A stretch of DNA of 64,000 bases, from assembly GCA_046563655.1 (NCBI GenBank), contig CM102287.1, positions 10,540,001-10,604,000 on the forward strand. The letters run 5' to 3'. The position numbers and the translations under genes were made by a program. The stretch comes from Yuukianura sp. NJ FZ-2021 (Eukaryota). Below, one piece after another: positions 41,878-63,067 of this stretch (positions within the stretch are counted from its first letter, which is position 1; each line of letters begins with the position of its first letter). The notes beneath the pieces were generated by a model that was not told the DNA's origin, did not search any database, and was given only the letters and a program-made list of their open reading frames with translations.

Positions 41878-41908
41878 TAAATCCGAATTTAATTTTGAAT
41901 AAACATAC

Positions 41909-42497
41909 CTGCACCGTAGATGTCCATTGAGGTAGTGAACACGACCAACTCGAACCATTTGGAAACCTACGCAAAGGAAATCATTTGTTATCATGCATGT
42001 TGTCTTTATGCATTAAAACTTACGACATCCAGGAAGTAGTCGACGTGTGGTCGTTTGTGGACAAAAAACCGAACTGGGTGCCGCTCAATCGTTACTTTGA
42101 GTATAAAGTCCGGAGGTGTCCCTGGCTTAACAGTTTGCCTAAACAAAGTAGAGATTGATGGAGATGCTAATTAAAAGTACGAGTTCCAGACAGTACCTTT
42201 GAACTCCATCGTGATGAGAATGGATGAGTGTTTCGTCCAGGTCCAGTACGAGTACTTTCCTCCGAACGACTGACAGCCTATGTTTAGATAAAGGTGACAA
42301 TGGGATCTCCTCATACTTGACTGCTTGATGTTGAATAATCTAAAACAGTGGAAATGGGGCAGTCAATTACACAATGTGCTTGGATTTGGTTGCCTTACCT
42401 TCCTTGCGTTCTTCTTCATGAAATAGGTGAGGCAGTTCCAAATTCTGTTGAGAAAAAGTAGGACATGTCTAATGGCCACTTCCGCATATTTCCACAT
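41909..42497 (-). pseudogene. CTDNEP1: CTD nuclear envelope phosphatase 1 (Dullard), 5' half only; exons 42399-42497, 42197-42339, 42024-42138, 41909-41966
   Basis: [31 protein letters not shown] (DxDxT), [50 protein letters not shown]; the next intron runs into the foldback element and no 3' exons follow. Confidence 0.85.
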
Positions 42498-42852
42498 CGC
42501 AACGTCAATCTCCAGAAGAAACGACGAAACGTGTGGAAGTCCAATCACACGTTGCTCCTCGGATTGTGGATCTGGACTGGAGAAAGAATAGTCCAAAGTA
42601 TGAGAATAATCGATGACCAAATGAGTGGATTCCAGTCAACTACTTTTACTTGACTTTAATTGTGTTGTTCCTTACCTTAACCTTTGAAAAATGCTTGATC
42701 CAGCTTCAGTTTGTAGTTGTGCTGGTTGTAGATAAACTAAAACTCAGTTAATCGGTTTAATTAATTAGTTAATCGTGAACTTTGCACTACTAAAGAAGGA
42801 AGAAATGAACAAAACAACTGAAATCTATAACTTTTAAAAGTAAAATCAGCTG

Positions 42853-42862
42853 GCGCATGCGC
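42853..42862. promoter_or_regulatory. NRF1/Ewg-type palindromic motif GCGCATGCGC upstream of the CTDNEP1 fragment
   Basis: Exact core consensus in otherwise AT-rich DNA ~350 bp upstream of the ATG. Confidence 0.4.
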
Positions 42863-43019
42863 GCACTCGCAATAACAAAATTGAAAATTTTGAGTAGAGG
42901 TCGGCGCCTCGCACTTCACAGCCACAAAAACAGCAAAGCACCATTAATTAAATTAATTACTTGATTACTCTTTAATTAAAGCATATAGAACTACGGGATT
43001 TGTTATCTGACATCAAACA

Positions 43020-45319
43020 TAATGTATTCTTTGTGATATAACGTATTCCGGAGTTTTAACATGCGTAATTAGCCTAATTTCTACTATTGTACCAAAACCA
43101 TGGTCGCAGCTACTTGCGATAACTACGATTGCTGATTACACCTTAAGTAATCGATTTAAAATCCTGAAATGTGTTATGTCAGCTTGTAATCGATTGGTTC
43201 TTTGCCGTATAACGTATTCCAGAGTTTTAAAATGCTTAATTAGCTTTAATTTTCACTTTTGTGCCAAACTCACGATCGCATGTACCTGCGATGTCTGCGA
43301 TTGCAGATTACTCGTAGAGTAATCGATTTAAAATCCTGAAATGTGTTAAATCGACTTGTAATTCATTAGTTCTTTCCCATATAACGTATTCCGGAGTTTT
43401 AAAGTGCTTAATTAGCTTCATTTTTCACTATTGAACCAAAATCTTGATCGCCAGTACTTGCGATTTCTACGATTGCTGATTACGCCTAAAGTAATCGATT
43501 TAAAATCCTGAAATGTGTTATATCAGCTTGTAATCGATTAGTTCTTTGCCAAATGACGTATTCCAGAATTTTAATTTGCATAATTAAGCTAATTAGCGCC
43601 TATTGTCCTCAAATTCAGTTTTTGCTTAATTATTCAGTAACTATGCAAATTAAAATTCTGGAATACGTTATCTCGACTTGTAATTGATTAGTTCTTTGCC
43701 GTATTACGTATTCCAGAATTTTAAGATGACGTTTAGCTCTATTGTCTTAACGCTATTGTGAAAAAAACGCTTTTTTCGTCGGAAAAACGTTTCGGAGATG
43801 GCCGAATTTGGTGTCAAAAGATCGGAAATTTAAAATAGTATCGATTTTGACACCAAAATCTCGCCTATCGGTGGATTTTGCAGTTTTTTTTTGCAAAAAA
43901 CATGATTTTTTTGCGAAAAAACACAACATAAATACAAGTTTTGATTCCTTTGCTTTCAGTGTTGGCATAGTAGCTTACAGGTTTAGAGCGGGCCTGTTTA
44001 GCACTATGGACGGTGGTTCGAGTCCACCCAGCGGTGTGGGTTTTTAGAGACGCCGTAGCTATGCACCAGGCTCTCCTACCCCCCGTGTTGTTTGTTTGGG
44101 GGGTAGGGGGGCCCAGGGAAGGTGGGGGATGGGGGGAAGGAGGCTAAAAAATGGAAAATTAATAATTAAATTAATTTTTTGTTCTAAGTTCAATTGTTTT
44201 CAAAGTACTTTTTCCCACGCTCAGTTTTTTCCCACGGTCATTTTTTCAAAGTTCAATTTTTTTCAAAGTTCATCTTAGTTTCCCACACTTAGTTTTTTTC
44301 CCACACTCGTTTTTTTCCCACAGTCATTTTTGTTAAAGTTCATTCTTTTTCACAGTTTATTCTAGTTTCGCACGCTCAGTTTTTTCCCACCGTCACGTTT
44401 TCTTAAGTTCATTTTTTTTTCAGAGTTCATTTTAGTTTCCCACGCTCAGTATTTTCCCACACTCGTTTTTCTTTCAAAGTTCATTTTGTTTTCCCACATT
44501 CATTTTTTTTCCAAAGTTCATTTTATTTTCACAACTTCATTTTTTTCCCACAGCCATTTTTTTTCGAAGTTCATTTTACTGTCTCATCTTCATTTTCTTC
44601 CGACGTTGATTTTTATTTCAAAGTTCAATTTATTTTCCCACCGTAATTTTCTCCCCACCATCATTTTTTCGAATGGCCATTTTTTTTTCAGAGTCCATTA
44701 TATTTTCCCATATTCATTTTTTTCCACATTCATTTTTTTCCAAAGTTCACTTTATTCTCCCACCTTCATTTTTTTCCGACGTTGATTTTTTTCAAAGTTC
44801 AATATATTTTCTCACCGTCTTCTTTCCCCACCTTCATCTTTTTCCCAGTCATTCTTTTTTCAAAGTTCATTTTATATCCCCACCTTCATCATTTTCACAC
44901 AATCATTTTTTCCCCACCGTCATTTTTTTTTCCAAAGTTCATTTTATTTTCACAACTTCATTTTTTTCCTACAGTCATTTTTTTGAAAGTTCAGTTTATT
45001 CTGACACCTTCATTTTTTTTTCAAAGTTCAATTTATTTTACCATATTAATCTTTTTTCCACAGTCCCTTTTTTTCAAAGTTCAGTTTATTCTCCCACCTT
45101 CGTTATTTTCTCACAGTCATTTTTTTCTCAATCTTCAAAGTACAATTTTTTCACAAGTTCACGTTTTTTTCAGAATGTCGATGCAGTATTATATTTTCAA
45201 GATTCTGCATTAGAAAGGCCATTGCCAGCAGTTTGCTGGTGTTTGACATTTCAGAAAATTTTGCATTACACCTTTCGTTGTGGGGGGTTTGAGATATGTC
45301 CAAAAGCTCTATAAAGGTT
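43020..45319 (+). repeat. Composite subtelomeric module, left copy (inverted homologue at 58845-60825)
   Basis: ~172-bp tandem units (ataacgtattcc at about 43038, 43209, 43381, 43553), internal inverted repeats, tRNA-like head, G-rich tract, T-rich degenerate repeats (44180-45170) and a unique tail ending CTCTATAAAGGTT. Confidence 0.9.
43964..44045 (+). other. tRNA-Ala(AGC)-derived Pol III promoter-like segment (SINE head or pseudo-tRNA)
   Basis: A-box-like TAGCTTACAGG..AGAGC, TTAGCA anticodon-loop remnant, perfect T-arm GGTGG-TTCGAGT-CCACC; no acceptor-stem pairing; TTTTT at 44041-44045. Confidence 0.6.
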
Positions 45320-48070
45320 AGAATTCGCTTTGAACGCTGAGAGGGTCGATATCTTGGTACCGGAAGGTTAGAATTCGCTTTGAACGCTGAGAGGGTCGAT
45401 ATCTTGGTACCGGAAGGTTAGAATTCGCTTTGAACGCTGAGAGGGTCGATATCTTGGTACCGGAAGGTTAGAATTCGCTTTGAACGCTGAGAGGGTCGAT
45501 ATCTTGGTACCGGAAGGTTAGAATTCGCTTTGAACGCTGAGAGGGTCGATATCTTGGTACCGGAAGGTTAGAATTCGCTTTGAACGCTGAGAGGGTCGAT
45601 ATCTTGGTACCGGAAGGTTAGAATTCGCTTTGAACGCTGAGAGGGTCGATATCTTGGTACCGGAAGGTTAGAATTCGCTTTGAACGCTGAGAGGGTCGAT
45701 ATCTTGGTACCGGAAGGTTAGAATTCGCTTTGAACGCTGAGAGGGTCGATATCTTGGTACCGGAAGGTTAGAATTCGCTTTGAACGCTGAGAGGGTCGAT
45801 ATCTTGGTACCGGAAGGTTAGAATTCGCTTTGAACGCTGAGAGGGTCGATATCTTGGTACCGGAAGGTTAGAATTCGCTTTGAACGCTGAGAGGGTCGAT
45901 ATCTTGGTACCGGAAGGTTAGAATTCGCTTTGAACGCTGAGAGGGTCGATATCTTGGTACCGGAAGGTTAGAATTCGCTTTGAACGCTGAGAGGGTCGAT
46001 ATCTTGGTACCGGAAGGTTAGAATTCGCTTTGAACGCTGAGAGGGTCGATATCTTGGTACCGGAAGGTTAGAATTCGCTTTGAACGCTGAGAGGGTCGAT
46101 ATCTTGGTACCGGAAGGTTAGAATTCGCTTTGAACGCTGAGAGGGTCGATATCTTGGTACCGGAAGGTTAGAATTCGCTTTGAACGCTGAGAGGGTCGAT
46201 ATCTTGGTACCGGAAGGTTAGAATTCGCTTTGAACGCTGAGAGGGTCGATATCTTGGTACCGGAAGGTTAGAATTCGCTTTGAACGCTGAGAGGGTCGAT
46301 ATCTTGGTACCGGAAGGTTAGAATTCGCTTTGAACGCTGAGAGGGTCGATATCTTGGTACCGGAAGGTTAGAATTCGCTTTGAACGCTGAGAGGGTCGAT
46401 ATCTTGGTACCGGAAGGTTAGAATTCGCTTTGAACGCTGAGAGGGTCGATATCTTGGTACCGGAAGGTTAGAATTCGCTTTGAACGCTGAGAGGGTCGAT
46501 ATCTTGGTACCGGAAGGTTAGAATTCGCTTTGAACGCTGAGAGGGTCGATATCTTGGTACCGGAAGGTTAGAATTCGCTTTGAACGCTGAGAGGGTCGAT
46601 ATCTTGGTACCGGAAGGTTAGAATTCGCTTTGAACGCTGAGAGGGTCGATATCTTGGTACCGGAAGGTTAGAATTCGCTTTGAACGCTGAGAGGGTCGAT
46701 ATCTTGGTACCGGAAGGTTAGAATTCGCTTTGAACGCTGAGAGGGTCGATATCTTGGTACCGGAAGGTTAGAATTCGCTTTGAACGCTGAGAGGGTCGAT
46801 ATCTTGGTACCGGAAGGTTAGAATTCGCTTTGAACGCTGAGAGGGTCGATATCTTGGTACCGGAAGGTTAGAATTCGCTTTGAACGCTGAGAGGGTCGAT
46901 ATCTTGGTACCGGAAGGTTAGAATTCGCTTTGAACGCTGAGAGGGTCGATATCTTGGTACCGGAAGGTTAGAATTCGCTTTGAACGCTGAGAGGGTCGAT
47001 ATCTTGGTACCGGAAGGTTAGAATTCGCTTTGAACGCTGAGAGGGTCGATATCTTGGTACCGGAAGGTTAGAATTCGCTTTGAACGCTGAGAGGGTCGAT
47101 ATCTTGGTACCGGAAGGTTAGAATTCGCTTTGAACGCTGAGAGGGTCGATATCTTGGTACCGGAAGGTTAGAATTCGCTTTGAACGCTGAGAGGGTCGAT
47201 ATCTTGGTACCGGAAGGTTAGAATTCGCTTTGAACGCTGAGAGGGTCGATATCTTGGTACCGGAAGGTTAGAATTCGCTTTGAACGCTGAGAGGGTCGAT
47301 ATCTTGGTACCGGAAGGTTAGAATTCGCTTTGAACGCTGAGAGGGTCGATATCTTGGTACCGGAAGGTTAGAATTCGCTTTGAACGCTGAGAGGGTCGAT
47401 ATCTTGGTACCGGAAGGTTAGAATTCGCTTTGAACGCTGAGAGGGTCGATATCTTGGTACCGGAAGGTTAGAATTCGCTTTGAACGCTGAGAGGGTCGAT
47501 ATCTTGGTACCGGAAGGTTAGAATTCGCTTTGAACGCTGAGAGGGTCGATATCTTGGTACCGGAAGGTTAGAATTCGCTTTGAACGCTGAGAGGGTCGAT
47601 ATCTTGGTACCGGAAGGTTAGAATTCGCTTTGAACGCTGAGAGGGTCGATATCTTGGTACCGGAAGGTTAGAATTCGCTTTGAACGCTGAGAGGGTCGAT
47701 ATCTTGGTACCGGAAGGTTAGAATTCGCTTTGAACGCTGAGAGGGTCGATATCTTGGTACCGGAAGGTTAGAATTCGCTTTGAACGCTGAGAGGGTCGAT
47801 ATCTTGGTACCGGAAGGTTAGAATTCGCTTTGAACGCTGAGAGGGTCGATATCTTGGTACCGGAAGGTTAGAATTCGCTTTGAACGCTGAGAGGGTCGAT
47901 ATCTTGGTACCGGAAGGTTAGAATTCGCTTTGAACGCTGAGAGGGTCGATATCTTGGTACCGGAAGGTTAGAATTCGCTTTGAACGCTGAGAGGGTCGAT
48001 ATCTTGGTACCGGAAGGTTAGAATTCGCTTTGAACGCTGAGAGGGTCGATATCTTGGTACCGGAAGGTTA
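45314..48070 (+). repeat. Homogeneous 50-bp tandem array (ggttagaattcgctttgaacgctgagagggtcgatatcttggtaccggaa), ~55 copies
   Basis: No variant unit seen; ends in AGGTTAAGGTCAGGTTA just before the gap. Confidence 0.98.
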
Positions 48071-48085
48071 AGGTCAGGTTATTTC

Positions 48086-48185
48086 NNNNNNNNNNNNNNN
48101 NNNNNNNNNNNNNNNNNNNNNNNNNNNNNNNNNNNNNNNNNNNNNNNNNNNNNNNNNNNNNNNNNNNNNNNNNNNNNNNNNNNNN
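48086..48185. other. Assembly gap (100 N)
   Basis: Run of exactly 100 n, a typical scaffolding placeholder. Confidence 0.99.
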
Positions 48186-48250
48186 CACCTAACCTAACCT
48201 AACCTAACCTAACCTAACCTAACCTAACCTAACCTAACCTAACCTAACCT
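48186..48250 (-). repeat. Arthropod telomeric repeat (TTAGG)n, ~13 units, at the contig start
   Basis: (CCTAA)n on the + strand directly after the gap, in the orientation expected for a left chromosome end. Confidence 0.93.
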
Positions 48251-51200
48251 TTCAAATTCAACAAAAACCCTCGAGATCGGCAGGTTAGGCTTCAAATTCA
48301 ACAAAAACCCTCGAGATCGGCAGGTTAGGCTTCAAATTCAACAAAAACCCTCGAGATCGGCAGGTTAGGCTTCAAATTCAACAAAAACCCTCGAGATCGG
48401 CAGGTTAGGCTTCAAATTCAACAAAAACCCTCGAGATCGGCAGGTTAGGCTTCAAATTCAACAAAAACCCTCGAGATCGGCAGGTTAGGCTTCAAATTCA
48501 ACAAAAACCCTCGAGATCGGCAGGTTAGGCTTCAAATTCAACAAAAACCCTCGAGATCGGCAGGTTAGGCTTCAAATTCAACAAAAACCCTCGAGATCGG
48601 CAGGTTAGGCTTCAAATTCAACAAAAACCCTCGAGATCGGCAGGTTAGGCTTCAAATTCAACAAAAACCCTCGAGATCGGCAGGTTAGGCTTCAAATTCA
48701 ACAAAAACCCTCGAGATCGGCAGGTTGGGCTTCAAATTCAACAAAAACCCTCGAGATCGGCAGGTTAGGCTTCAAATTCAACAAAAACCCTCGAGATCGG
48801 CAGGTTAGGCTTCAAATTCAACAAAAACCCTCGAGATCGGCAGGTTAGGCTTCAAATTCAACAAAAACCCTCGAGATCGGCAGGTTAGGCTTCAAATTCA
48901 ACAAAAACCCTCGAGATCGGCAGGTTAGGATTTCAAATTCAACAAAAACCCTCGAGATCGGCAGGTTAGGGCTTCAAATTCAACAAAAACCCTCGAGATC
49001 GGCAGGTTAGGATTCAAATTCAACAAAAACCCTCGAGATCGGCAGGTTGAGGCTTCAAATTCAACAAAAACCCTCGAGATCGGCAGGTTAGGGCTTCAAA
49101 TTCAACAAAAACCCTCGAGATCGGCAGGTTAGGCTTCAAATTCAACAAAAACCCTCGAGATCGGCAGGTTGGGCTTCAAATTCAACAAAAACCCTCGAGA
49201 TCGGCAGGTTGAGCTTCAAATTCAACAAAAACCCTCGAGATCGGCAGGTTAGGCTTCAAATTCAACAAAAACCCTCGAGATCGGCAGGTTGCTTCAAATT
49301 CAACAAAAACCCTCGAGATCGGCAGGTTAGGCTTCAAATTCAACAAAAACCCTCGAGATCGGCAGGTTAGGATTCAAATTCAACAAAAACCCTCGAGATC
49401 GGCAGGTTGAAGGCTTCAAATTCAACAAAAACCCTCGAGATCGGCAGGTTAGGCTTCAAATTCAACAAAAACCCTCGAGATCGGCAGGTTAGGCTTCAAA
49501 TTCAACAAAAACCCTCGAGATCGGCAGGTTAGGCTTCAAATTCAACAAAAACCCTCGAGGCTTCCAAATTCAACAAAAACCTCGAGATCCCGGCGGTTGA
49601 AAACTTCAAATTCAACAAAAACCCTCGAGATCGGCAGGTTAGGCTTCAAATTCCAACAAAGCCACTCGAGATCGGCAGGTTAGGCTTCAAATTCGACAAA
49701 AACCCTCGAGATCGGCAGGTTAGGCTTCAAATTCGACAAAAACCCTCGAGATCGGCAGGTTAGGCTTCCAAATTCAACAAAAACCCTCGAGATCGGCAGG
49801 TTAGGCTTCAAATTTAACAAAAACCCTCGAGATCGGCGAGGTTAAGCTTCAAATTCAACAAAAACCCTCGAGATCGGCAGGTTGGGCTTCAAATTCAACA
49901 AAAACCCTCGAGATCGGCGAGGTTAGGGCTTCAAATTCAACAAAAACCCTCGAGATCGGCAGGTTAGGCTTCAAATTCAACAAAAACCCTCGAGATCGGC
50001 AGGTTAGGCTTCAAATTCAACAAAAACCCTCGAGATCGGCAGGTTAGGCTTCAAATTCAACAAAAACCCTCGAGATCGGCAGGTTAGGCTTCAAATTCAA
50101 CAAAAACCCTCGAGATCGGCAGGTTAGGCTTCAAATTCAACAAAAACCCTCGAGATCGGCAGGTTGAGGCTTCAAATTCAACAAAACCCTCGAGATCGGC
50201 AGGTTAGGCTTCAAATTCAACAAAAACCCTCGAGATCGGCAGGTTGAGGCTTCAAATTCAACAAAAACCCTCGAGATCGGCAGGTTAGGCTTCAAATTCA
50301 ACAAAAACCCTCGAGATCGGCAGGTTGAAGCTTCAAATTCAACAAAAACCCTCGAGATCGGCAGGTTAGGCTTCAAATTCAACAAAAACCCTCGAGATCG
50401 GCAGGTTGAAACTTCAAATTCAACAAAAACCCTCGAGATCGGCGGTTAGGCTTCAAATTCAACAAAAACCCTCGAGATCGGCAGGTTAGGCTTCAAATTC
50501 AACAAAAACCCTCGAGATCGGCAGGTTAGGCTTCAAATTCAACAAAAACCCTCGAGATCGGCAGGTTAGGCTTCAAATTCAACAAAAACCCTCGAGATCG
50601 GCAGGTTAGGCTTCAAATTCAACAAAAACCCTCGAGATCGGCAGGTTAGGCTTCAAATTCAACAAAAACCCTCGAGATCGGCAGGTTAGGCTTCAAATTC
50701 AACAAAAACCCTCGAGATCGGCAGGTTAGGCTTCAAATTCAACAAAAACCCTCGAGATCGGCAGGTTAGGCTTCAAATTCAACAAAAACCCTCGAGATCG
50801 GCAGGTTAGGCTTCAAATTCAACAAAAACCCTCGAGATCGGCAGGTTAGGCTTCAAATTCAACAAAAACCCTCGAGATCGTGGCAGGTTGAAAGGCTTCA
50901 AATTCAACAAAAACCCTCGAGATCGGCAGGTTAGATTCAAATTTAACAAAAACCCTCGAGATCGGCAGGTTAGGCTTCAAATTTAACAAAAACCCTCGAG
51001 ATCGGCAGGTTGAAGGCTTCAAATTCAACAAAAACCCTCGAGATCGGCAGGTTAGGCTTCAAATTCAACAAAAACCCTCGAGATCGGCAGGTTAGGCTTC
51101 AAATTCAACAAAAACCCTCGAGATCGGCAGGTTAGGAAAACTTCAAATTCAACAAAAACCCTCGAGATCGGCAGGTTAGGCTTCAAATTCAACAAAAACC

Positions 51201-54200
51201 CTCGAGATCGGCAGGTTAGGCTTCAAATTCAACAAAAACCCTCGAGATCGGCAGGTTAGGCTTCAAATTCAACAAAAACCCTCGAGATCGGCAGGTTAGG
51301 CTTCAAATTCAACAAAAACCCTCGAGATCGGCAGGTTAGGCTTCAAATTCAACAAAAACCCTCGAGATCGGCAGGTTGGAAGCTTCAAATTCAACAAAAA
51401 CCCTCGAGATCGGCAGGTTAGGCTTCAAATTCAACAAAAACCCTCGAGATCGGCAGGTTAGGCTTCAAATTCAACAAAAACCCTCGAGATCGGCAGGTTA
51501 GGCTTCAAATTCAACAAAAACCCTCGAGATCGGCAGGTTGGGCTTCAAATTCAACAAAAACCCTCGAGATCGGCAGGTTAGGCTTCAAATTCAACAAAAA
51601 CCCTCGAGATCGGCAGGTTAGGCTTCAAATTCAACAAAAACCCTCGAGATCGGCAGGTTAGGCTTCAAATTCAACAAAAACCCTCGAGATCGGCAGGTTA
51701 GGCTTCAAATTCAACAAAAACCCTCGAGATCGGCAGGTTAGGCTTCAAATTCAACAAAAACCCTCGAGATCGGCAGGTTGGGCTTCAAATTCAACAAAAA
51801 CCCTCGAGATCGGCAGGTTAGGCTTCAAATTCAACAAAAACCCTCGAGATCGGCAGGTTAGGCTTCAAATTCAACAAAAACCCTCGAGATCGGCAGGTTA
51901 GGCTTCAAATTCAACAAAAACCCTCGAGATCGGCAGGTTAGGCTTCAAATTCAACAAAAACCCTCGAGATCGGCAGGTTAGGCTTCAAATTCAACAAAAA
52001 CCCTCGAGATCGGCAGGTTAGGCTTCAAATTCAACAAAAACCCTCGAGATCGGCAGGTTAGGCTTCAAATTCAACAAAAACCCTCGAGATCGGCAGGTTA
52101 GGCTTCAAATTCAACAAAAACCCTCGAGATCGGCAGGTTGAGGCTTCAAATTCAACAAAAACCCTCGAGATCGGCAGGTTAGGCTTCAAATTCAACAAAA
52201 ACCCTCGAGATCGGCAGGTTAGGCTTCAAATTCAACAAAAACCCTCGAGATCGGCAGGTTAGGCTTCAAATTCAACAAAAACCCTCGAGATCGGCAGGTT
52301 AGGCTTCAAATTCAACAAAAACCCTCGAGATCGGCAGGTTAGGCTTCAAATTCAACAAAAACCCTCGAGATCGGCAGGTTAGGCTTCAAATTCAACAAAA
52401 ACCCTCGAGATCGGCAGGTTAGGCTTCAAATTCAACAAAAACCCTCGAGATCGGCAGGTTAGAGCTTCAAATTCAACAAAAACCCTCGAGATCGGCAGGT
52501 TAGGCTTCAAATTCAACAAAAACCCTCGAGATCGGCAGGTTAGGCTTCAAATTCAACAAAAACCCTCGAGATCGGCAGGTTAGGCTTCAAATTCAACAAA
52601 AACCCTCGAGATCGGCAGGTTAGGCTTCAAATTCAACAAAAACCCTCGAGATCGGCAGGTTAGGCTTCAAATTCAACAAAAACCCTCGAGATCGGCAGGT
52701 TGAGGCTTCAAATTCAACAAAAACCCTCGAGATCGGCAGGTTGAGGCTTCAAATTCAACAAAAACCCTCGAGATCGGCAGGTTAGGCTTCAAATTCAACA
52801 AAAACCCTCGAGATCGGCAGGTTAGGCTTCAAATTCAACAAAAACCCTCGAGATCGGCAGGTTAGGCTTCAAATTCAACAAAAACCCTCGAGATCGGCAG
52901 GTTAGGCTTCAAATTCAACAAAAACCCTCGAGATCGGCAGGTTAGGCTTCAAATTCAACAAAAACCCTCGAGATCGGCAGGTTAGGCTTCAAATTCAACA
53001 AAAACCCTCGAGATCGGCAGGTTAGGCTTCAAATTCAACAAAAACCCTCGAGATCGGCAGGTTAGGCTTCAAATTCAACAAAAACCCTCGAGATCGGCAG
53101 GTTAGGCTTCAAATTCAACAAAAACCCTCGAGATCGGCAGGTTAGGCTTCAAATTCAACAAAAACCCTCGAGATCGGCAGGTTAGGCTTCAAATTCAACA
53201 AAAACCCTCGAGATCGGCAGGTTAGGCTTCAAATTCAACAAAAACCCTCGAGATCGGCAGGTTAGGCTTCAAATTCAACAAAAACCCTCGAGATCGGCAG
53301 GTTAGGCTTCAAATTCAACAAAAACCCTCGAGATCGGCAGGTTAGGCTTCAAATTCAACAAAAACCCTCGAGATCGGCAGGTTAGGCTTCAAATTCAACA
53401 AAAACCCTCGAGATCGGCAGGTTAGGCTTCAAATTCAACAAAAACCCTCGAGATCGGCAGGTTAGGCTTCAAATTCAACAAAAACCCTCGAGATCGGCAG
53501 GTTAGGCTTCAAATTCAACAAAAACCCTCGAGATCGGCAGGTTAGGCTTCAAATTCAACAAAAACCCTCGAGATCGGCAGGTTAGGCTTCAAATTCAACA
53601 AAAACCCTCGAGATCGGCAGGTTAGGCTTCAAATTCAACAAAAACCCTCGAGATCGGCAGGTTAGGCTTCAAATTCAACAAAAACCCTCGAGATCGGCAG
53701 GTTAGGCTTCAAATTCAACAAAAACCCTCGAGATCGGCAGGTTAGGCTTCAAATTCAACAAAAACCCTCGAGATCGGCAGGTTAGGCTTCAAATTCAACA
53801 AAAACCCTCGAGATCGGCAGGTTAGGCTTCAAATTCAACAAAAACCCTCGAGATCGGCAGGTTAGGCTTCAAATTCAACAAAAACCCTCGAGATCGGCAG
53901 GTTAGGCTTCAAATTCAACAAAAACCCTCGAGATCGGCAGGTTAGGCTTCAAATTCAACAAAAACCCTCGAGATCGGCAGGTTAGGCTTCAAATTCAACA
54001 AAAACCCTCGAGATCGGCAGGTTAGGCTTCAAATTCAACAAAAACCCTCGAGATCGGCAGGTTAGGCTTCAAATTCAACAAAAACCCTCGAGATCGGCAG
54101 GTTAGGCTTCAAATTCAACAAAAACCCTCGAGATCGGCAGGTTAGGCTTCAAATTCAACAAAAACCCTCGAGATCGGCAGGTTAGGCTTCAAATTCAACA

Positions 54201-57200
54201 AAAACCCTCGAGATCGGCAGGTTAGGCTTCAAATTCAACAAAAACCCTCGAGATCGGCAGGTTAGGCTTCAAATTCAACAAAAACCCTCGAGATCGGCAG
54301 GTTAGGCTTCAAATTCAACAAAAACCCTCGAGATCGGCAGGTTAGAGCTTCAAATTCAACAAAAACCCTCGAGATCGGCAGGTTAGGCTTCAAATTCAAC
54401 AAAAACCCTCGAGATCGGCAGGTTAGGCTTCAAATTCAACAAAAACCCTCGAGATCGGCAGGTTAGGCTTCAAATTCAACAAAAACCCTCGAGATCGGCA
54501 GGTTAGGCTTCAAATTCAACAAAAACCCTCGAGATCGGCAGGTTAGGCTTCAAATTCAACAAAAACCCTCGAGATCGGCAGGTTAGGCTTCAAATTCAAC
54601 AAAAACCCTCGAGATCGGCAGGTTAGGCTTCAAATTCAACAAAAACCCTCGAGATCGGCAGGTTAGGCTTCAAATTCAACAAAAACCCTCGAGATCGGCA
54701 GGTTAGGCTTCAAATTCAACAAAAACCCTCGAGATCGGCAGGTTAGGCTTCAAATTCAACAAAAACCCTCGAGATCGGCAGGTTAGGCTTCAAATTCAAC
54801 AAAAACCCTCGAGATCGGCAGGTTAGGCTTCAAATTCAACAAAAACCCTCGAGATCGGCAGGTTAGGCTTCAAATTCAACAAAAACCCTCGAGATCGGCA
54901 GGTTAGGCTTCAAATTCAACAAAAACCCTCGAGATCGGCAGGTTAGGCTTCAAATTCAACAAAAACCCTCGAGATCGGCAGGTTAGGCTTCAAATTCAAC
55001 AAAAACCCTCGAGATCGGCAGGTTAGGCTTCAAATTCAACAAAAACCCTCGAGATCGGCAGGTTAGGCTTCAAATTCAACAAAAACCCTCGAGATCGGCA
55101 GGTTAGGCTTCAAATTCAACAAAAACCCTCGAGATCGGCAGGTTAGGCTTCAAATTCAACAAAAACCCTCGAGATCGGCAGGTTAGGCTTCAAATTCAAC
55201 AAAAACCCTCGAGATCGGCAGGTTAGGCTTCAAATTCAACAAAAACCCTCGAGATCGGCAGGTTAGGCTTCAAATTCAACAAAAACCCTCGAGATCGGCA
55301 GGTTAGGCTTCAAATTCAACAAAAACCCTCGAGATCGGCAGGTTAGGCTTCAAATTCAACAAAAACCCTCGAGATCGGCAGGTTAGGCTTCAAATTCAAC
55401 AAAAACCCTCGAGATCGGCAGGTTAGGCTTCAAATTCAACAAAAACCCTCGAGATCGGCAGGTTAGGCTTCAAATTCAACAAAAACCCTCGAGATCGGCA
55501 GGTTAGGCTTCAAATTCAACAAAAACCCTCGAGATCGGCAGGTTAGGCTTCAAATTCAACAAAAACCCTCGAGATCGGCAGGTTAGGCTTCAAATTCAAC
55601 AAAAACCCTCGAGATCGGCAGGTTAGGCTTCAAATTCAACAAAAACCCTCGAGATCGGCAGGTTAGGCTTCAAATTCAACAAAAACCCTCGAGATCGGCA
55701 GGTTAGGCTTCAAATTCAACAAAAACCCTCGAGATCGGCAGGTTAGGCTTCAAATTCAACAAAAACCCTCGAGATCGGCAGGTTAGGCTTCAAATTCAAC
55801 AAAAACCCTCGAGATCGGCAGGTTAGGCTTCAAATTCAACAAAAACCCTCGAGATCGGCAGGTTAGGCTTCAAATTCAACAAAAACCCTCGAGATCGGCA
55901 GGTTAGGCTTCAAATTCAACAAAAACCCTCGAGATCGGCAGGTTAGGCTTCAAATTCAACAAAAACCCTCGAGATCGGCAGGTTAGGCTTCAAATTCAAC
56001 AAAAACCCTCGAGATCGGCAGGTTAGGCTTCAAATTCAACAAAAACCCTCGAGATCGGCAGGTTAGGCTTCAAATTCAACAAAAACCCTCGAGATCGGCA
56101 GGTTAGGCTTCAAATTTAACAAAAACCCTCGAGATCGGCAGGTTAGGCTTCAAATTTAACAAAAACCCTCGAGATCGGCAGGTTAGGCTTCAAATTCAAC
56201 AAAAACCCTCGAGATCGGCAGGTTAGGCTTCAAATTCAACAAAAACCCTCGAGATCGGCAGGTTAGGCTTCAAATTCAACAAAAACCCTCGAGATCGGCA
56301 GGTTAGGCTTCAAATTCAACAAAAACCCTCGAGATCGGCAGGTTAGGCTTCAAATTCAACAAAAACCCTCGAGATCGGCAGGTTAGGCTTCAAATTCAAC
56401 AAAAACCCTCGAGATCGGCAGGTTAGGCTTCAAATTCAACAAAAACCCTCGAGATCGGCAGGTTAGGCTTCAAATTCAACAAAAACCCTCGAGATCGGCA
56501 GGTTAGGCTTCAAATTCAACAAAAACCCTCGAGATCGGCAGGTTAGGCTTCAAATTCAACAAAAACCCTCGAGATCGGCAGGTTAGGCTTCAAATTCAAC
56601 AAAAACCCTCGAGATCGGCAGGTTAGGCTTCAAATTCAACAAAAACCCTCGAGATCGGCAGGTTAGGCTTCAAATTCAACAAAAACCCTCGAGATCGGCA
56701 GGTTAGGCTTCAAATTCAACAAAAACCCTCGAGATCGGCAGGTTGAGGCTTCAAATTCAACAAAAACCCTCGAGATCGGCAGGTTAGGCTTCAAATTCAA
56801 CAAAAACCCTCGAGATCGGCAGGTTAGGCTTCAAATTCAACAAAAACCCTCGAGATCGGCAGGTTAGGCTTCAAATTCAACAAAAACCCTCGAGATCGGC
56901 AGGTTAGGCTTCAAATTCAACAAAAACCCTCGAGATCGGCAGGTTAGGCTTCAAATTCAACAAAAACCCTCGAGATCGGCAGGTTAGGCTTCAAATTCAA
57001 CAAAAACCCTCGAGATCGGCAGGTTAGGCTTCAAATTCAACAAAAACCCTCGAGATCGGCAGGTTAGGCTTCAAATTCAACAAAAACCCTCGAGATCGGC
57101 AGGTTAGGCTTCAAATTCAACAAAAACCCTCGAGATCGGCAGGTTAGGCTTCAAATTCAACAAAAACCCTCGAGATCGGCAGGTTAGGCTTCAAATTCAA

Positions 57201-58848
57201 CAAAAACCCTCGAGATCGGCAGGTTAGGCTTCAAATTCAACAAAAACCCTCGAGATCGGCAGGTTAGGCTTCAAATTCAACAAAAACCCTCGAGATCGGC
57301 AGGTTAGGCTTCAAATTCAACAAAAACCCTCGAGATCGGCAGGTTGGGCTTCAAATTCAACAAAAACCCTCGAGATCGGCAGGTTAGGCTTCAAATTCAA
57401 CAAAAACCCTCGAGATCGGCAGGTTGACTTCAAATTCAACAAAAACCCTCGAGATCGGCAGGTTAGGCTTCAAATTCAACAAAAACCCTCGAGATCGGCA
57501 GGTTAGGCTTCAAATTCAACAAAAACCCTCGAGATCGGCAGGTTAGGCTTCAAATTCAACAAAAACCCTCGAGATCGGCAGGTTAGGCTTCAAATTCAAC
57601 AAAAACCCTCGAGATCGGCAGGTTAGGCTTCAAATTCAACAAAAACCCTCGAGATCGGCAGGTTAGGCTTCAAATTCAACAAAAACCCTCGAGATCGGCA
57701 GGTTAGGCTTCAAATTCAACAAAAACCCTCGAGATCGGCAGGTTAGGCTTCAAATTCAACAAAAACCCTCGAGATCGGCAGGTTAGGCTTCAAATTCAAC
57801 AAAAACCCTCGAGATCGGCAGGTTAGGCTTCAAATTCAACAAAAACCCTCGAGATCGGCAGGTTAGGCTTCAAATTCAACAAAAACCCTCGAGATCGGCA
57901 GGTTAGGCTTCAAATTCAACAAAAACCCTCGAGATCGGCAGGTTAGGCTTCAAATTCAACAAAAACCCTCGAGATCGGCAGGTTAGGCTTCAAATTCAAC
58001 AAAACCCTCGAGATCGGCAGGTTAGGCTTCAAATTCAACAAAAACCCTCGAGATCGGCAGGTTAGGCTTCAAATTCAACAAAAACCCTCGAGATCGGCAG
58101 GTTAGGCTTCAAATTCAACAAAAACCCTCGAGATCGGCAGGTTAGGCTTCAAATTCAACAAAAACCCTCGAGATCGGCAGGTTAGGCTTCAAATTCAACA
58201 AAAACCCTCGAGATCGGCAGGTTAGGCTTCAAATTCAACAAAAACCCTCGAGATCGGCAGGTTAGGCTTCAAATTCAACAAAAACCCTCGAGATCGGCAG
58301 GTTAGGCTTCAAATTCAACAAAAACCCTCGAGATCGGCAGGTTAGGCTTCAAATTCAACAAAAACCCTCGAGATCGGCAGGTTAGGCTTCAAATTCAACA
58401 AAAACCCTCGAGATCGGCAGGTTAGGCTTCAAATTCAACAAAAACCCTCGAGATCGGCAGGTTGAGGCTTCAAATTCAACAAAAACCCTCGAGATCGGCA
58501 GGTTAGGCTTCAAATTCAACAAAAACCCTCGAGATCGGCAGGTTGAGGCTTCAAATTCAACAAAAACCCTCGAGATCGGCAGGTTAGGCTTCAAATTCAA
58601 CAAAAACCCTCGAGATCGGCAGGTTAGGCTTCAAATTCAACAAAAACCCTCGAGATCGGCAGGTTAGGCTTCAAATTCAACAAAAACCCTCGAGATCGGC
58701 AGGTTAGGCTTCAAATTCAACAAAAACCCTCGAGATCGGCAGGTTAGGCTTCAAATTCAACAAAAACCCTCGAGATCGGCAGGTTAGGCTTCAAATTCAA
58801 CAAAAACCCTCGAGATCGGCAGGTTAGGCTTCAAATTCAACAAAAACC
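48251..58848 (+). repeat. 40-bp tandem array (ttcaaattcaacaaaaaccctcgagatcggcaggttaggc), ~265 copies
   Basis: Directly visible; near-identical units, with scattered indels concentrated at 48900-51400. Confidence 0.98.
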
Positions 58849-60825
58849 TTTATAGAGCTTTTGGACATATCTCAAACCCCTGGCAACGAAATTTGTAATG
58901 CAAAATTTTCTGAAATGTCAAACACCAGCAAACTGCTGGCAATGGCCTTTCTAATGCAGAATCTTGAAAACATAATACTGCATCGACATTCTGAAAAAAA
59001 CGTGAACTTGTGAAAAAATTGTACTTTGAAGATTGAGAAAAAAATTACTGTGAGAAAAGAACGAAGGTGGGAGAATAAACTGAACTTTGAAAAAAAGGGA
59101 CTGTGGAAAAAAGATTAATATGGTAAAATATATTGAACTTTGAAAAAAAAAATGAAGGTGTCAGAATAAACTGAACTTTCAAAAAAATGACTGTAGGAAA
59201 AAAATGAAGTTGTGAAAATAAAATGAACTTTGGAAAAAAAATGACGGTGGGGAAAAAATGATTGTGTGAAAATGATGAAGGTGGGGATATCAAATGAACT
59301 TTGAAAAAAAAATGACTGTGGGAAAAAAATGAAGGTGGTGAAAAAATGACGGTGGGAAAATAAATTGAATTTTGAAATAAAAATCAACGTCGGAAGAAAA
59401 TGAAGGTGGGAGAATAAAGTGCAATTTGAAAAAAAATGACTGTGGAAAAAAAAATGAATATGGGAAAATATAATGAACTTTGAAAAAAAAATGACCATTC
59501 GAAAAAATGATGGTGGGGAGAAAATTACGGTGGGAAAATAAATTGAACTTTGAAATAAAAATCAACGTCGGAAGAAAATGAACTATGGAAAAAAAATGAA
59601 TGTGGGAAAACAAAATGAACTTTGAAAGAAAAACGAGTGTGGGAAAATACTGAGCGTGGGAAACTAAAATGAACTCTGAAAAAAAATGAACTTTTAAAAA
59701 CATGACCGTGGGAAAAAGTACTTTGAAAACAATTGAACTTAGAACAAAAAATTAATTTAATTATTAATTTTCTATTTTTTAGCCTCCTTCCCCCCATGCC
59801 CCACCTTCCCCGGGCCCCCCTACCCCCCAAACAAACAACACGGGGGGTAGGAGAGCCCGGAGCATAGCTTTGGCGTCTACAAATACCCACACCGCTGGGT
59901 GGACTCGAACCACCCTCCTGCATAATGCTAAACAGGCGCTCTATACCTGTAAGCTACTATGCCAACACTGAGAGAATAGGAATCAAAACTTGTATTTATG
60001 TTGTGTTTTTTTGCCAAGAAATCATGTTTTTTGCAAAAAAAACTCCAAAATCCACCGATAGGCGAGATTTTGGTGTCAAAATCGATACTATTTTAAATTT
60101 CCGATCTTTTGACACCAAATTCGGCCATCTCCGAAACGTTTTTCCGACGAAAAAAGCGTTTTCTTCACAATAGCGTTAAGACAATAGAGCTAAACGTCAC
60201 CTTAAAATTCTGGAATACGTTATACGGCACAGAACTAATCAATTGCAACTCGAGATAACGTATTCCAGAATTTTAATTTGCATAATTACTGACTAATTAA
60301 GCAAAAACTGAATTTGAGGACAATAGGCGCTAATTAGCTTAATTATGCAAATTAAAATTCTGGAATACGTTATGTGGCAAAGAACTAATCGATTACAAGC
60401 TGTGATAACACAATTCAGGATTTTAAATCGATTACTTTAGCTGTAATCTGCAATCGCAGACATCGCAAGTACTTGCGATTTTGAGTTTGGCACAAAAGTA
60501 AAAATTAAAGCTAATTAAGCACTTTAAAACTCCGGAATACGTTATATGGCAAAGAACTAATCGATTACAAGCTGACATAACACATTTCAGGATTTTAAAT
60601 CGATTACTTAAGGTGAAATCAGCAATCGTAGTTATCGCAAGTAGCTGCGACCATGGTTTTGGTACAATAGTAGAAATTAGGCTAATTACGCACTTTAAAA
60701 CTCCGGAATACGTTATATGGCAAAGAACTAATCGATTACAAGCTGATATAACACAATTCAGGATTTTAAATCGATTACTTTAGGCGTAATCAGCAATCGT
60801 AGATATCGCAAGTACTCGCGATGTC
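58845..60825 (-). repeat. Composite subtelomeric module, right (inverted) copy
   Basis: Reverse complement of 43020-45319 with substitutions, a shorter T-rich repeat block and rearranged 172-bp units. Confidence 0.9.
59886..59963 (-). other. tRNA-Ala(AGC)-derived segment, copy 2
   Basis: GGCATAGTAGCTTACAGGTATAGAGCGCCTGTTTAGCATTATGCAGGAGGGTGGTTCGAGTCCACC on the minus strand; CCTG/CAGG anticodon stem retained around TTAGCAT. Confidence 0.6.
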
Positions 60826-61293
60826 TATTATGACACATTTCAGAGGATTAGCCCTCCACATTCACAAAAAAAGAAGTTGTGGAGGAAGTTTTGTCCACTC
60901 GTCGGTCCGCACCAGGAATTGAGATTCACGTAAATACTGCAGAGGAGTAAGATCCAACTCCTCCAAGGGTAAAATCCAACTCTACTCCCTCTCATATAAA
61001 AGGGAAGTGAAACCAAAATCCACAGCCAATTTACGAGAGGAATAATACAAAGTATAAGTGGTGGGAGCAGTGATCAAGTGGATAAAGGACAGGTTTCGTG
61101 TGGTCAATTTCATGTCCAAAGTCCACGTTAAGGGTAACCCACATTGCTCCTTTGTTGATGAAGAGGGGGACTTTACTTTTGTTGGTTGCAGGGTCACATC
61201 TTACTCATCTTTTCACTTTGGACGTTGAAGTGAACACATTGGTCCTCGGAATCAGTTGGAATTGGACAGCGACAGGCACAAGATCTGCGTCCG

Positions 61294-62829
61294 ATGGAGG
61301 GACTCGACGCATTCCTGACCCACATCCACAACCTCAGAGGTACTAATAAGTCAGTAGTTGTTCATTGGAAGTTGGTCTCAACTTGTAATTGTGTCTTTGT
61401 AGATGTGCGAGTGGACCAGTGGCTCTTCATGTCTTCCCCTCTCCCCACACTTCTCATCTGCTCCACTTACATTCTCATTGTCAAGGATCTCGGACCAAGG
61501 TTCATGCGACATCGTCCACCATATGACCTCAGACAAGTCCTCGTCATCTACAACGCTCTCCAGGTCATCTTCTCAGCATGGCTCTTCTACGAGGTAACTT
61601 TACAAGCGGAACAGGCATTTAGGTCACTTCAGTCCCTGCACAAGGGCTCTAGTCTAAAAATAGAAGAACCCTTAGTCCTGTCCACCGAAAGTGAAAGTCC
61701 AAGGCCACCCCCAATTTTCAATTGAGGTTAGTGAGGTCCTTCTCAACCCAACGAGATGTAGTCATTTTGCAACGATTGACCAATTCCTTCCCTTGGAATT
61801 GAAAGTGTTGATGACCTTGGCCATTTCTCCTCACTTGAATAAGTGACCCTGACTTGGTTCCCAATTGTTACAAGAGACAAAAAGGGGTGCATGATTTTTT
61901 GCAATACTTCCTTTGTAATCACTAAAGGATGGGCAAATGTACCAACGGAATCACTAATCCGTCTTTTGTTGATTTTAGTACGGACGCGGGGGATGGTTCC
62001 ATGGCTACTCGTTTCGATGTCAACCCGTGGACTACTCCAACGACGACATGGCCATCAGGGTTCGTTCCTCCTTTCATGACGCACTCACTCTCGTCTCTAA
62101 ATAAGTGTCTATTTGTAGATGGTCCATGCCTGTTGGTGGTACTACTTTAGCAAGTACACGGAGTTCTTGGACACGGTAATCAAACTAAAATGGAACCAAA
62201 GTGGAATTCCCCAATTAATCCCTCCATTCTTTATAGTTTTTCTTTGTGCTGCGGAAGAAGAAGAGTCAGATCACGACTCTGCACGTCATTCACCATGGGT
62301 TGATGCCAATGAGTGTTTGGTTTGGGGTCAAGTACACGCCTGGGGGCCACTCCACTTTCTTCGGCCTCCTCAACACCTTTGTCCACATCATCATGTACTT
62401 TTACTACATGGTCTCTGCCATGGGACCCCAGTGGCACAAACTCATCTGGTGGAAAAAGTACATGACGTCCATCCAAATGGTAACAACCGCACTCATTCAA
62501 CATTATTCAACAACTGACTGGCTCTCCTTCTCTAGGTCCAGTTTGTGCTCATCGCCACGCATGCCTTCCAGCTCCTCTTCATTTCCTGCGACTATCCGCG
62601 TGCCTTTGTATGGTGGATCGGTTGCCATGGTCTCCTCTTTCTCATCCTCTTCTCCAACTTCTACCGACAGAGTTATCGACGCAGTTGTGGACACAAGAGT
62701 GTCCTAACCACTCACCCCTCACCGTCATCCACCCCCCAACTTACACAACGTCCACTCAAAGAAGGTAGGGAGACCCCCTTCTGGGGATCCACCATTTCAT
62801 CCCCCCTCAAACACCACAAAGAGCATTGA
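61294..62829 (+). CDS. ELOVL: Very-long-chain fatty acid elongase (ELOVL1/7-like), copy 2
   Basis: Same exon structure and peptides as 36549-38087; the differences seen are mostly synonymous or intronic. Confidence 0.92.
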
Positions 62830-63067
62830 CATTAGTCTCACGTAACCTTAAAACCGCCACAACTCCAATCCAACTCATGCATCAATAAAAGGAAAGGGCC
62901 TAGGCGGATTTTGTGGAGTGGACTTGCGTATTCTTATTACTAAAAACGACCACAGTTCGTGGTTCCCACTTCCATTTGTCCCACCCATTAATCCGCTAAA
63001 GAGCCACCAGAAGTATTTGACAGGATATTGGATCATGAGAGGCAAACGAAAGTCAAGTCCTCATCTT

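Follow-up and report, generated by a model that had tools for sequence, protein, structure and literature searches.

Homologous flanks in a Yuukianura assembly pass at the same GGTT into two unrelated tandem arrays

In a 64,000-nucleotide stretch of contig CM102287.1 of Yuukianura sp. NJ FZ-2021 (assembly GCA_046563655.1, positions 10,540,001 to 10,604,000 of the forward strand; hereafter the window), a gene-bearing block occurs twice in opposite orientations, at 35376-45319 and 58845-64000; its two copies terminate at the same base, in ...CTATAAAGGTT, and continue into tandem arrays of unrelated units. The most plausible reading of the common stop at GGTT is that it was once a joint between flank and telomere, which agrees with the proposal of an earlier note on this DNA that the seed marks where a telomere began. 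There is about an even chance that GGTT is the old block-telomere joint and that units bearing a telomere motif were installed there by microhomology-primed copying, through break-induced replication (BIR) or a rolling circle, after which they became homogenised and telomerase re-capped the ends.

Two block copies end at the same base

The left block copy (35376-45319, forward strand) and the right copy (58845-64000, reverse strand), which reaches the end of the window, were delimited using inverted-repeat pairs, a BLAST map, Pfam and Rfam, together with TRF on the left. Inverted-repeat pairs and the BLAST map place homology between 64000-60898 and 35376-38486 (96.7% identity) and between 60821-58845 and 43104-45319 (85-92%); the 4.5 kb at 38487-43026 are present in the left copy and absent from the right. 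Read directly, the left flank terminates in ...CCAAAAGCTCTATAAAGGTT, with GGTT at 45316-45319, and the right flank, once inverted, has the identical final 20 bases, with AACC at 58845-58848. On alignment the flanks are about 97% alike over the final 420 nt up to GGTT and divergent beyond, which confirms the same-base stop described earlier. Their last 190 nt, with two occurrences in the window, are 96.8% identical and their final 36 nt are identical.

The left copy carries a piece of a ubiquitin-like/TM gene (35531-35953; Pfam), a tRNA (36221-36303, reverse strand; Rfam), exons of an ELO-family elongase (36671-38023, reverse strand; Pfam), a V-SNARE exon within the left-only 4.5-kb segment (38487-43026; Pfam), and 172-bp repeats with a T-rich low-complexity minisatellite (44209-45127; TRF). 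The right carries ELO exons (61234-62707, forward strand; Pfam), a tRNA (63068-63150, forward strand; Rfam) and the ubiquitin-like/TM piece (63417-63845, reverse strand; Pfam). In protein searches the ELO exons matched mainly insects at 61-85% identity, and a near-identical record was absent; together with a protein-atlas search, this suggests that the encoded proteins are arthropod-like.

Between the arrays lies a scaffold gap of 100 N (48086-48185, no strand) that joins two telomere-ended contigs head to head. Because the two ends are separate contigs across this gap, the block copies may be either two chromosome ends or both haplotypes of one end, set head to head by the scaffolder.

Both arrays have sharp edges and telomere-like cores

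The left array (45316-48065, forward strand) consists of 55 copies of a 50-mer, every one of them exact with 0 mismatches; TRF starts it at 45314 and counts 55.1 copies with 100% matches. The seed AAGGTT (45314-45319, forward strand), whose last four letters are the GGTT of the flank, holds both the final base common to the two flanks and the opening bases of the 50-mer periodicity. A telomere-like 7-mer, AGGTTAG, spans the joint between units in G-strand-like orientation towards the end; such a core was seen in 3.1% of 20,000 shuffles. After 55.0 units the array passes, exactly at its GGTTA core and in phase, into 20 nt of degenerate telomere-like sequence at the end of the left contig (48066-48085, forward strand; GGTTA-A-GGTcA-GGTTA-TTTC), followed by the 100 N.

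The right array (48251-58848, reverse strand) consists of about 264 copies of a 40-mer (264.5 copies with 98% matches by TRF). The consensus accounts for 217 of the 263 pieces into which it was split, including all flank-side units. The absence of degenerate edge monomers noted earlier holds for both arrays. Each 40-mer contains a telomere-like core, CCTAACC, whose orientation is opposite to that of the terminal TTAGG tract; read as GGTTAGG plus one base it makes an 8-mer, which was seen in 0.6% of shuffles. Given this inversion, the core in its present orientation is unable to prime telomerase. The final 40-mer is truncated after unit position 19 and is joined there to a terminal tract of 12.8 perfect TTAGG units (48187-48250, reverse strand, TAACC on the forward strand; TRF). 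The statement in the earlier note that both arrays end in telomeric sequence or something like it is accurate for canonical repeats on the right; on the left it covers only 20 degenerate telomere-like bases.

Differences among the 40-mers are concentrated within the unit, where positions 20-23.5 account for 55 of the 74 events, and a distal part of the array is rich in variants (48749-51642, reverse strand; about units 180-251 from the flank). Identical variants recur, CCTCAACC 8 times and CCCAACC 6 times, and the hot spot at positions 20-23.5 may be a consensus error. Repeated variant patterns marking internal segmental copying were not seen in the 40-mer array.

One of the mechanisms proposed earlier was iterative reverse transcription of long templates, in which telomerase or another reverse transcriptase would copy alternative RNA templates of 40-50 nt to give end-specific units. 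The clustering of 40-mer differences at one site resembles a template boundary, and the TTAGG tract is joined at that same site. The hot spot nevertheless lies 20 nt off the flank joint, so that the unit boundary is not the seed; the 40-mer core has the wrong orientation for the strand to be synthesised; and on this strand the variant inserts are rich in C and T and not TTAGG-like. A telomerase with a long template should give one unit type at all ends, G-strand-like towards the 3' end; the two units here are unrelated and one core is inverted. Nor did the window yield the expected components: Rfam found two tRNAs, both in the flanks, and no other RNA family; either unit folded no better than its shuffles (z -0.04 to 1.44); and no reverse-transcriptase-like frame was present among 63 open reading frames of at least 90 aa, 9 of which were scanned against Pfam. 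Inside the arrays, these frames are read-throughs of the repeats, about 92-102 aa long. Dedicated synthesis of this kind fits poorly and we regard it as highly improbable.

Contigs from sequencing runs contain flank and array sequence

Words from the flank and the 50-mer are present in contigs from four sequencing runs, one of which is labelled another organism and belongs to another study (bins 45350-45449), implying that the 50-mer unit is older than this individual. The left-junction bin (45300-45349) and the 50-mer bins had contig cover in 4 of 4 runs, a support that consists of short Logan contigs rather than raw reads, none of them shown to bridge flank into array. The ratio of 50-mer to flank bin depth was roughly 16-90 in run X2 and about 1 in X1 and X3; depths differ wildly between runs of one sample and are a single figure per contig, and copy numbers were therefore not drawn from them. 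In run X4 the final 300 nt of the flank are covered by a single contig, which has the variants of the right copy and ends 7 letters beyond GGTT; that no contig of the left flank type covers those 300 nt in X4 is no evidence of absence.

These data bear on whether the flank-array joints, or the length and perfection of the arrays, were made by an assembler or polisher, with the head-to-head layout added by a scaffolder. Several features would suit such an origin. The contigs are joined telomere to telomere by 100 N, the left contig ends in noisy sequence, the 36 identical terminal nucleotides of the flanks invite mis-threading, and both the perfection of all 55 left units and the recurrence of identical 40-mer variants are possible outcomes of repeat consensus polishing. 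Against it stand the cover of the left-junction and 50-mer bins in all four runs, the clean and correctly oriented TTAGG tract that ends the right contig, and the occurrence of a sharp switch in both of two separately assembled contigs. We consider an artefact unlikely.

The arrays are unrelated and are entered through microhomology

The 50-mer and 40-mer gave an in-register global alignment score of 0.0 (shuffle mean -0.8, sd 2.7), and their best local score was matched in 5.4% of 500 shuffles, so that their similarity is not significant. Common descent of the two units was rejected at this sensitivity, with the score inside the shuffle range, bearing out the earlier description of the units as unrelated. 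The sole piece common to them is a 10/11 match at the telomere-like core, in opposite orientation. Read 5' to 3' towards the end, both units have more G than C and more T than A, as TTAGG does. Entry through microhomology, also described earlier, is seen at both junctions, as AAGGTT at the left junction and GGTT at the right junction, and because of it the breakpoint can be placed only to a window of 4-6 nt. Neither joint has an A/T tail.

The arrays are 98-100% homogeneous and the flanks 85-97% alike. This means that at least one array was either installed or fully homogenised after the flanks diverged; the recent deposition claimed earlier stands to that extent.

A search of the rest of the window revealed no unit-like sequence (best matches 9-10 nt, E at least 3.4), and hence neither further copies of either unit nor a donor resembling the nematode template discussed below. 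Exact-match searches gave no hits for the flank end or the 40-mer in metagenome contigs or for the 50-mer in prokaryote genomes, and four pieces of unit sequence had no match in a full-text literature search.

The lack of a donor within the window speaks for local birth of the arrays, in which replication slippage between flanking telomere-like bases duplicated a short foreign insert lodged in the earliest telomeric repeats, which was then expanded in place by unequal sister-chromatid exchange, with no copying from another locus. The left array has the form expected from amplifying a core plus a 44-nt insert in the start of a telomere: exactly 55.0 units, the same GGTTA(G) phase at start and end, and edges formed by flank and by telomere-like sequence, respectively. 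Local birth explains this in-phase array equally well. It requires, however, two independent births in the same 4-6 nt window, and the 40-mer suits it poorly, having an inverted core and an array that is out of phase distally (264.5 units, cut after position 19). The presence of 50-mer words in the run labelled another organism also counts against it, as the unit then predates this individual. We judge local birth possible but rather unlikely.

The arrays could also be ordinary subtelomeric or interstitial satellites unlinked to telomere repair, with the boundary inherited from an ancestral flank-satellite joint and one array later replaced by turnover. End-specific subtelomeric satellites are common, and a third satellite, 28.7 kb long and with an unrelated 50-bp unit, lies in the window. 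Unequal exchange, however, does not yield replacement of a whole array to its first base without a degenerate edge; telomere-like cores occur in both units and in none of the older 28.7-kb satellite; and at the contig ends each array borders on sequence that is telomeric or resembles it. An origin as ordinary satellites therefore seems quite improbable to us.

A proposed repair account and its precedents

We favor an account based on telomere repair, in which the block end ...CTATAAAGGTT would be the old joint of unique DNA and a TTAGG telomere. Loss of the telomere back to this joint, at one or both ends, would have exposed a 3' end (...AAGGTT) able to anneal by a 4-6 nt microhomology to a tandem array of units with telomere-like cores, located at another chromosome end or on an excised circle. 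The end would then have been lengthened by break-induced or rolling-circle replication, with unequal exchange maintaining homogeneity within each array, and telomerase would have added new caps, starting from the GGTTA core of a 50-mer at the left end and from a break within a 40-mer at the right. From the anatomy we infer that telomeres were lost, that sequence was copied in from elsewhere, and in what order this happened. Several points count for this repair account: the stop of both flanks at GGTT, with microhomology at each junction; the sharp edges of both arrays, with exact 50-mers from the seed onwards and consensus 40-mers next to the flank; the indication from identity levels that the arrays are younger than the flanks or were homogenised faster; the telomere-like cores and the strand bias of the units; the passage of each array into telomeric or telomere-like sequence; the presence of flank and 50-mer words in four runs, one of them labelled another organism; and precedents in nematodes. 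Against it count the 20 degenerate bases that form the left cap, the inverted core of the 40-mer and its hot spot, the absence of unit-like sequence elsewhere in the window, the in-phase left array that slippage explains equally well, and the fact that two ends are visible, which may be alleles.

The closest of these precedents are in panagrolaimid nematodes, where clusters of tandem units, each 14 bp to about 2 kb long and containing the telomere motif, are attached directly to telomeres and, with homology blocks common to subtelomeres, are ascribed to repair by ALT, BIR or MMBIR followed by telomerase capping (PMC10760449). Such clusters are defined there by at least 6 tandem copies at 85% identity or more, a motif in each unit, attachment to the telomere and absence outside subtelomeres. 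The arrays described here have 55.1 copies at 100% and 264.5 copies at 98%, and each unit has a motif, AGGTTAG (7 nt) in one and CCTAACC plus one base (8 nt) in the other, the inversion of the latter being a departure. The right array abuts 12.8 perfect TTAGG units, and the left is followed by 20 degenerate bases before the N gap. As in the nematodes, motif-bearing tandem units (40 and 50 bp here) lie between subtelomere and telomerase-made tract, subtelomeres share homology blocks, and short interstitial telomere tracts occur nearby (PMC10760449). The differences are the phylum, the telomere motif (TTAGG rather than TTAGGC/TTAGAC), and the short core of just 7-8 nt that is inverted in one array (PMC10760449). 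The passages of that report drawn on here do not describe two unrelated units following the same base of homologous flanks (PMC10760449).

TALT (template for ALT) of C. elegans likewise forms tandem arrays at chromosome ends, and its templates differ between genetic backgrounds (PMC4595603; PMC6581047). At the VR end of strain CB4856, five TALT copies in tandem lie between a short telomere remnant and a telomerase cap (PMC6581047). Both cases comprise non-telomeric blocks edged by telomere-like sequence and tandemly amplified at ends, for TALT including a telomerase-bearing wild strain (PMC4595603; PMC6581047). Unlike here, 780-1182 nt of telomeric repeats lie between TALT copies, and a donor copy is known from an internal site (PMC4595603; PMC6581047); the Yuukianura units, at 40-50 bp, are contiguous, with the 7-8 nt core as their sole telomere-like part and a joint remnant no longer than GGTT(AG). 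Since the arrays are the same kind of structure as panagrolaimid clusters and TALT, they do not make a new system or category, and surveys of insect subtelomeres may already list such arrays.

Other terminal systems are more distant. Diptera without telomerase have long complex terminal repeats in Chironomus and Anopheles and short M-22, M-16 and T-14 repeats in Rhynchosciara (PMC7694509), and Meloidogyne has composite terminal repeats (PMC10844300). Like the present arrays, these are non-canonical tandem repeats at ends, in families that vary by end or species and are thought to be maintained by recombination; unlike here, they are described without short telomerase-type repeats (PMC7694509; PMC10844300). 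In Chironomus and Anopheles the long repeats form the terminus, whereas (TTAGG)12.8 lies distal to the 40-mers, which makes the arrays subtelomeric and not the terminus itself. In insects, TTAGG telomeres are interrupted by TRAS/SART retrotransposons (PMC12036569). These are also non-TTAGG DNA inserted at a fixed point within the TTAGG motif of arthropods that have telomerase, but are kilobase elements with RT/endonuclease ORFs and A/T tails (PMC12036569), in contrast to 40-50 bp units with read-through frames and no A/T tail.

If the junctions are real, they offer a clean natural comparison, in which one flank broken at one base carries two unrelated arrays. They would also narrow down to a few bases where telomere-adjacent arrays are seeded, and show that the joint uses only 4-6 nt of homology. 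The repair account, if true, would extend "ALT scars in wild genomes with telomerase", so far found mainly in nematodes, to an arthropod with TTAGG telomeres. The units supply specific probes for movement of arrays between ends, haplotypes or individuals; and if the copies are alleles, turnover would be recent enough for study within populations.

The earlier note went further and proposed an exchangeable extension system. In the most far-reaching form of this idea, chromosome ends of a telomerase-positive arthropod, or both alleles of one end, would routinely exchange kilobase end-specific arrays of 40-50-bp units seeded at a fixed GGTT, as a natural recombination or rolling-circle maintenance beside TTAGG capping, with the arrays as a second protective layer and the cores as landing or priming sites. 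The two visible ends, which may be alleles, do not bear this out, and we hold it to be quite doubtful.

Other features of the units and the window

The 50-mer contains three 6-bp palindromes, GAATTC, GATATC and GGTACC, a mildly unusual number (P = 0.03 by shuffles). The idea that the 50-mer is a synthetic sequence was dropped, the palindromes being no more unusual than that. Three 50-mers compared with plasmids by blastn had no match, so nothing points to a vector or a contaminant as their source.

The third satellite (4786-33470; TRF) has a 50-bp unit, spans 28.7 kb and is unrelated to both arrays. Indels shift its register, and lag identity is thus uninformative on higher-order periodicity. 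About 185 nt past this satellite, and 1.7 kb ahead of the part of the block common to both copies, lies an interstitial GGTTAGGTTAGG (33654-33665, forward strand), in the orientation that the putative former telomere of the left end would have had.

Results

Direct reading of positions 44,800-59,400 confirmed, base for base, the anatomy that an earlier note had described for two chromosome ends. On the plus strand, the left flank ends in ...CCAAAAGCTCTATAAAGGTT, with its last GGTT at 45316-45319, and a 50-bp tandem array follows (TRF: 55.1 copies, 100% matches, 0 indels). Pattern search of the whole window found 55 of 55 copies of this 50-mer with 0 mismatches at 45316-48065 and none outside that interval. 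Downstream of the 55th copy lie the 20 bases GGTTA-A-GGTcA-GGTTA-TTTC, followed by exactly 100 N (48086-48185). Past this gap, the right contig starts with CACC and 12.8 perfect TAACC units (48187-48250; TRF), continues as an array of 264.5 copies of a 40-bp unit with 98% matches (48251-58848; TRF) and, at the flank-side AACC (58845-58848), passes into the reverse complement of the left-flank sequence. TTAGG is the motif of insects and arthropods, according to passages in a review (PMC9498494). The claim that both arrays end in telomeric sequence holds for the right array with its perfect units and only in part for the left, where 20 telomere-like bases are present.

The (TAACC)n that opens the right contig has the orientation expected for the left end of a chromosome. 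Because the termini are telomeric on the right and telomere-like on the left and the gap between them is of fixed size, we take the record to be two telomere-ended contigs set head to head by the scaffolder, not one molecule. These could be different chromosome ends or two haplotypes of one end; the 3% divergence of their unique parts would fit either.

One block, present in two inverted copies, makes up both flanks, and the homology between the copies reaches the window edge. Identity is 96.7% between 64000-60898 and 35376-38486 and 85-92% between 60821-58845 and 43104-45319; the terminal 420 nt align at ~97% up to GGTT and no further. The terminal 190 nt (96.8% identical) occur twice in the window, both times at these ends. 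Exons encoding a fatty-acid elongase of the ELO family (PF01151; E 5e-29 and 1e-28) are present in both copies, at 36671-38023 (-) on the left and 61234-62707 (+) on the right, as is a piece of a ubiquitin-like/transmembrane gene at 35531-35953 (+) and 63417-63845 (-). Both are open in both copies, so the genes of this duplicated or allelic block look intact, and they lie within 8-10 kb of the arrays. There is also one tRNA gene per copy, at 36221-36303 (-) and 63068-63150 (+) (Rfam RF00005, 55.4 bits each), which probably contains an intron given its length of 83 nt. A 172-bp tandem repeat of ~3 copies (82-87% matches) lies at 43027-43586 and 60332-60815, and a 4.5-kb segment of the left copy (38487-43026) is missing from the right. 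Within this left-only segment are a V-SNARE C-terminal exon (PF12352; 39697-39984) and a palindromic 19-bp tandem repeat (41164-41739) with inverted arms at 41013-41890.

Searches with the ELO exon indicate an arthropod: listed proteins, mostly from insects, are 61-85% identical, and protein-atlas and protein searches returned no near-identical record. An RRM-containing ORF at 2401-3321 (-) resembles translation initiation factor 4B/4H; its best named relative, from a mite, is 35% identical and unnamed metagenome and Logan proteins are 50-60% identical, in keeping with sparse representation of the source organism's relatives in the protein collection.

At the joints, flank and periodic sequence have AAGGTT in common on the left and GGTT on the right, so the breakpoints can be placed only within a 4-6 nt window, and the two windows overlap each other. 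Next to the flank, both arrays open with consensus units, in agreement with the earlier claim that there are no degenerate edge monomers. Distally, the left array stops after exactly 55.0 units and the telomere-like sequence that follows keeps the phase of the array's GGTTA core, and on the right a unit is cut after position 19 and TTAGG repeats are joined there without visible homology. Both ends, the left primed on the core and the right as a healed break, would fit telomerase capping. The in-phase left array is also a good fit to local birth of the arrays through slippage and unequal exchange, an origin that we consider unlikely overall.

We found no significant likeness between the two units, which the earlier note had called unrelated. 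Aligned in register from the GGTT seed at which both flank copies stop, they gave a global score of 0.0 against -0.8 (sd 2.7) for shuffles, and 5.4% of 500 shuffles equalled the best local alignment between them in any rotation and on either strand. This alignment is an 11-mer (10/11 identical) around a telomere-like core, and one array has it inverted relative to the other. In the 50-mer the core is AGGTTAG, which spans the unit joint and runs in the G-strand-like direction toward the end; in the 40-mer it is CCTAACC plus one more base, in the opposite direction. Among 20,000 unit shuffles, cores of such length arose in 3.1% (7-mer) and 0.6% (8-mer). Both units have more G than C and more T than A on the strand that reads 5' to 3' toward the end. 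Neither folded better than shuffles, Rfam found no RNA families on the arrays and no unit-like sequence occurs elsewhere in the window.

Variants make up 47 of 264 40-mers, 14 among the proximal 180 units and 33 among the distal 84, with a variant-rich part at 48749-51642; the last 11 complete units at the distal end return to the consensus. Identical variants reappear at scattered places in the array (8 times for one form, 6 for another), and we saw no repeated order of variants. Unit positions 20-23.5 account for 55 of the 74 difference events in the 44 variants whose length is normal; these positions lie within the inverted telomere-like core and coincide with the attachment site of the terminal tract. 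This hot spot may reflect genuine instability of the site or a consensus error that long-read assembly makes systematically.

We regard an assembly artefact as quite improbable. A search returned five sequencing runs: four share one sample, and the fifth comes from a different study and bears the label of another organism; the comparison covers short Logan contigs, whose depth is one figure per contig and inconsistent among runs of one sample. Contigs of 4 of 4 runs covered words from the flank, the junction bin (45300-45349) and the 50-mer bins, so flank and 50-mer are not private to this assembly; none of these short contigs was shown to bridge flank and array. Exact scans of metagenome contigs and prokaryote genomes gave no match, blastn gave no plasmid match and full-text search gave no paper mentioning pieces of the units.

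Discussion

Two multi-kilobase flank copies switch at the same few bases, which calls for a common cause. AGGTT is a permutation of one TTAGG unit, and the simplest reading is therefore that unique DNA once met the telomere at the switch point. Within each array the units are 98-100% alike, against a 3-15% difference between the flanks, so at least one of the arrays must have been put in place, or completely homogenised, later than the split between the flank copies. In the account to which we give roughly an even chance, the telomere would have been lost back to the joint, the 3' end would have paired through microhomology with an array of core-bearing units and been extended by break-induced or rolling-circle copying, and the new array would have been homogenised by unequal exchange and capped by telomerase. 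The anatomy is what we observe, and from it we infer these events. Ordinary satellite turnover as the source of the arrays has little probability.

The earlier note also entertained iterative reverse transcription of long templates. A dedicated system of this kind is very hard to credit: the core of the 40-mer is inverted, the hot spot is offset by 20 nt from the seed, and searches of the window returned no reverse transcriptase and no RNA family other than tRNA. The broader proposal of an exchangeable telomere extension system goes beyond what the two assembled contigs show; the boldest reading, that end-specific arrays are routinely exchanged alongside active telomerase, seems to us improbable.

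As assembled, on two contigs, the observation is real and of a known kind, that of repair scars or telomere-adjacent unit clusters. The closest described are the telomere-attached clusters of telomeric-motif-containing units in panagrolaimid nematodes. Passages in PMC10760449 describe units of 14 bp to about 2 kb with an average copy number of 19 or more, confined to subtelomeres and often adjoining the telomere, with homology blocks and ITSs common to several ends, and interpret them as ALT/BIR/MMBIR repair followed by telomerase capping. The TALT arrays of C. elegans work similarly but differ from the arrays here: their units and telomeric spacers are long, and an internal donor is known (parts of PMC4595603 and PMC6581047). 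The long terminal repeats of Chironomus, Anopheles, Rhynchosciara and Meloidogyne belong, in sections of PMC7694509 and PMC10844300, to hosts without telomerase-type repeats, which is not the situation here. Nor are the arrays TRAS/SART elements, which interrupt insect TTAGG telomeres (excerpts of PMC12036569). Literature searches, covering part of the work on insect subtelomeres, returned no arthropod report of such unit clusters.

An older event may have left a scar upstream of the shared block. The interstitial 12-nt GGTTAGGTTAGG (2.4 telomere units) at 33654-33665 has the orientation of a former telomere of this end and, by our own rough estimate, would be expected by chance ~0.03 times over the roughly 50 kb that the arrays do not occupy. 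Telomere-like 8-mers occupy 8 positions outside both arrays against 7.7 expected, and 5 of the 8 belong to this 12-mer. If the scar is real, the whole block would be a 'new subtelomere' added onto an older end, in parallel with that described for chromosome VR of C. elegans CB4856 (passages in PMC6581047). In the right copy, the corresponding stretch falls beyond the window. The 12-mer lies ~185 nt past an older, unrelated 50-bp satellite (4786-33470; 28.7 kb, 574.8 copies, 85% matches) in which we found no telomere-like core. Sub-motif TRF rows of this satellite at 19665, 22010 and 24355, spaced by 2,345 bp, hint at higher-order units.
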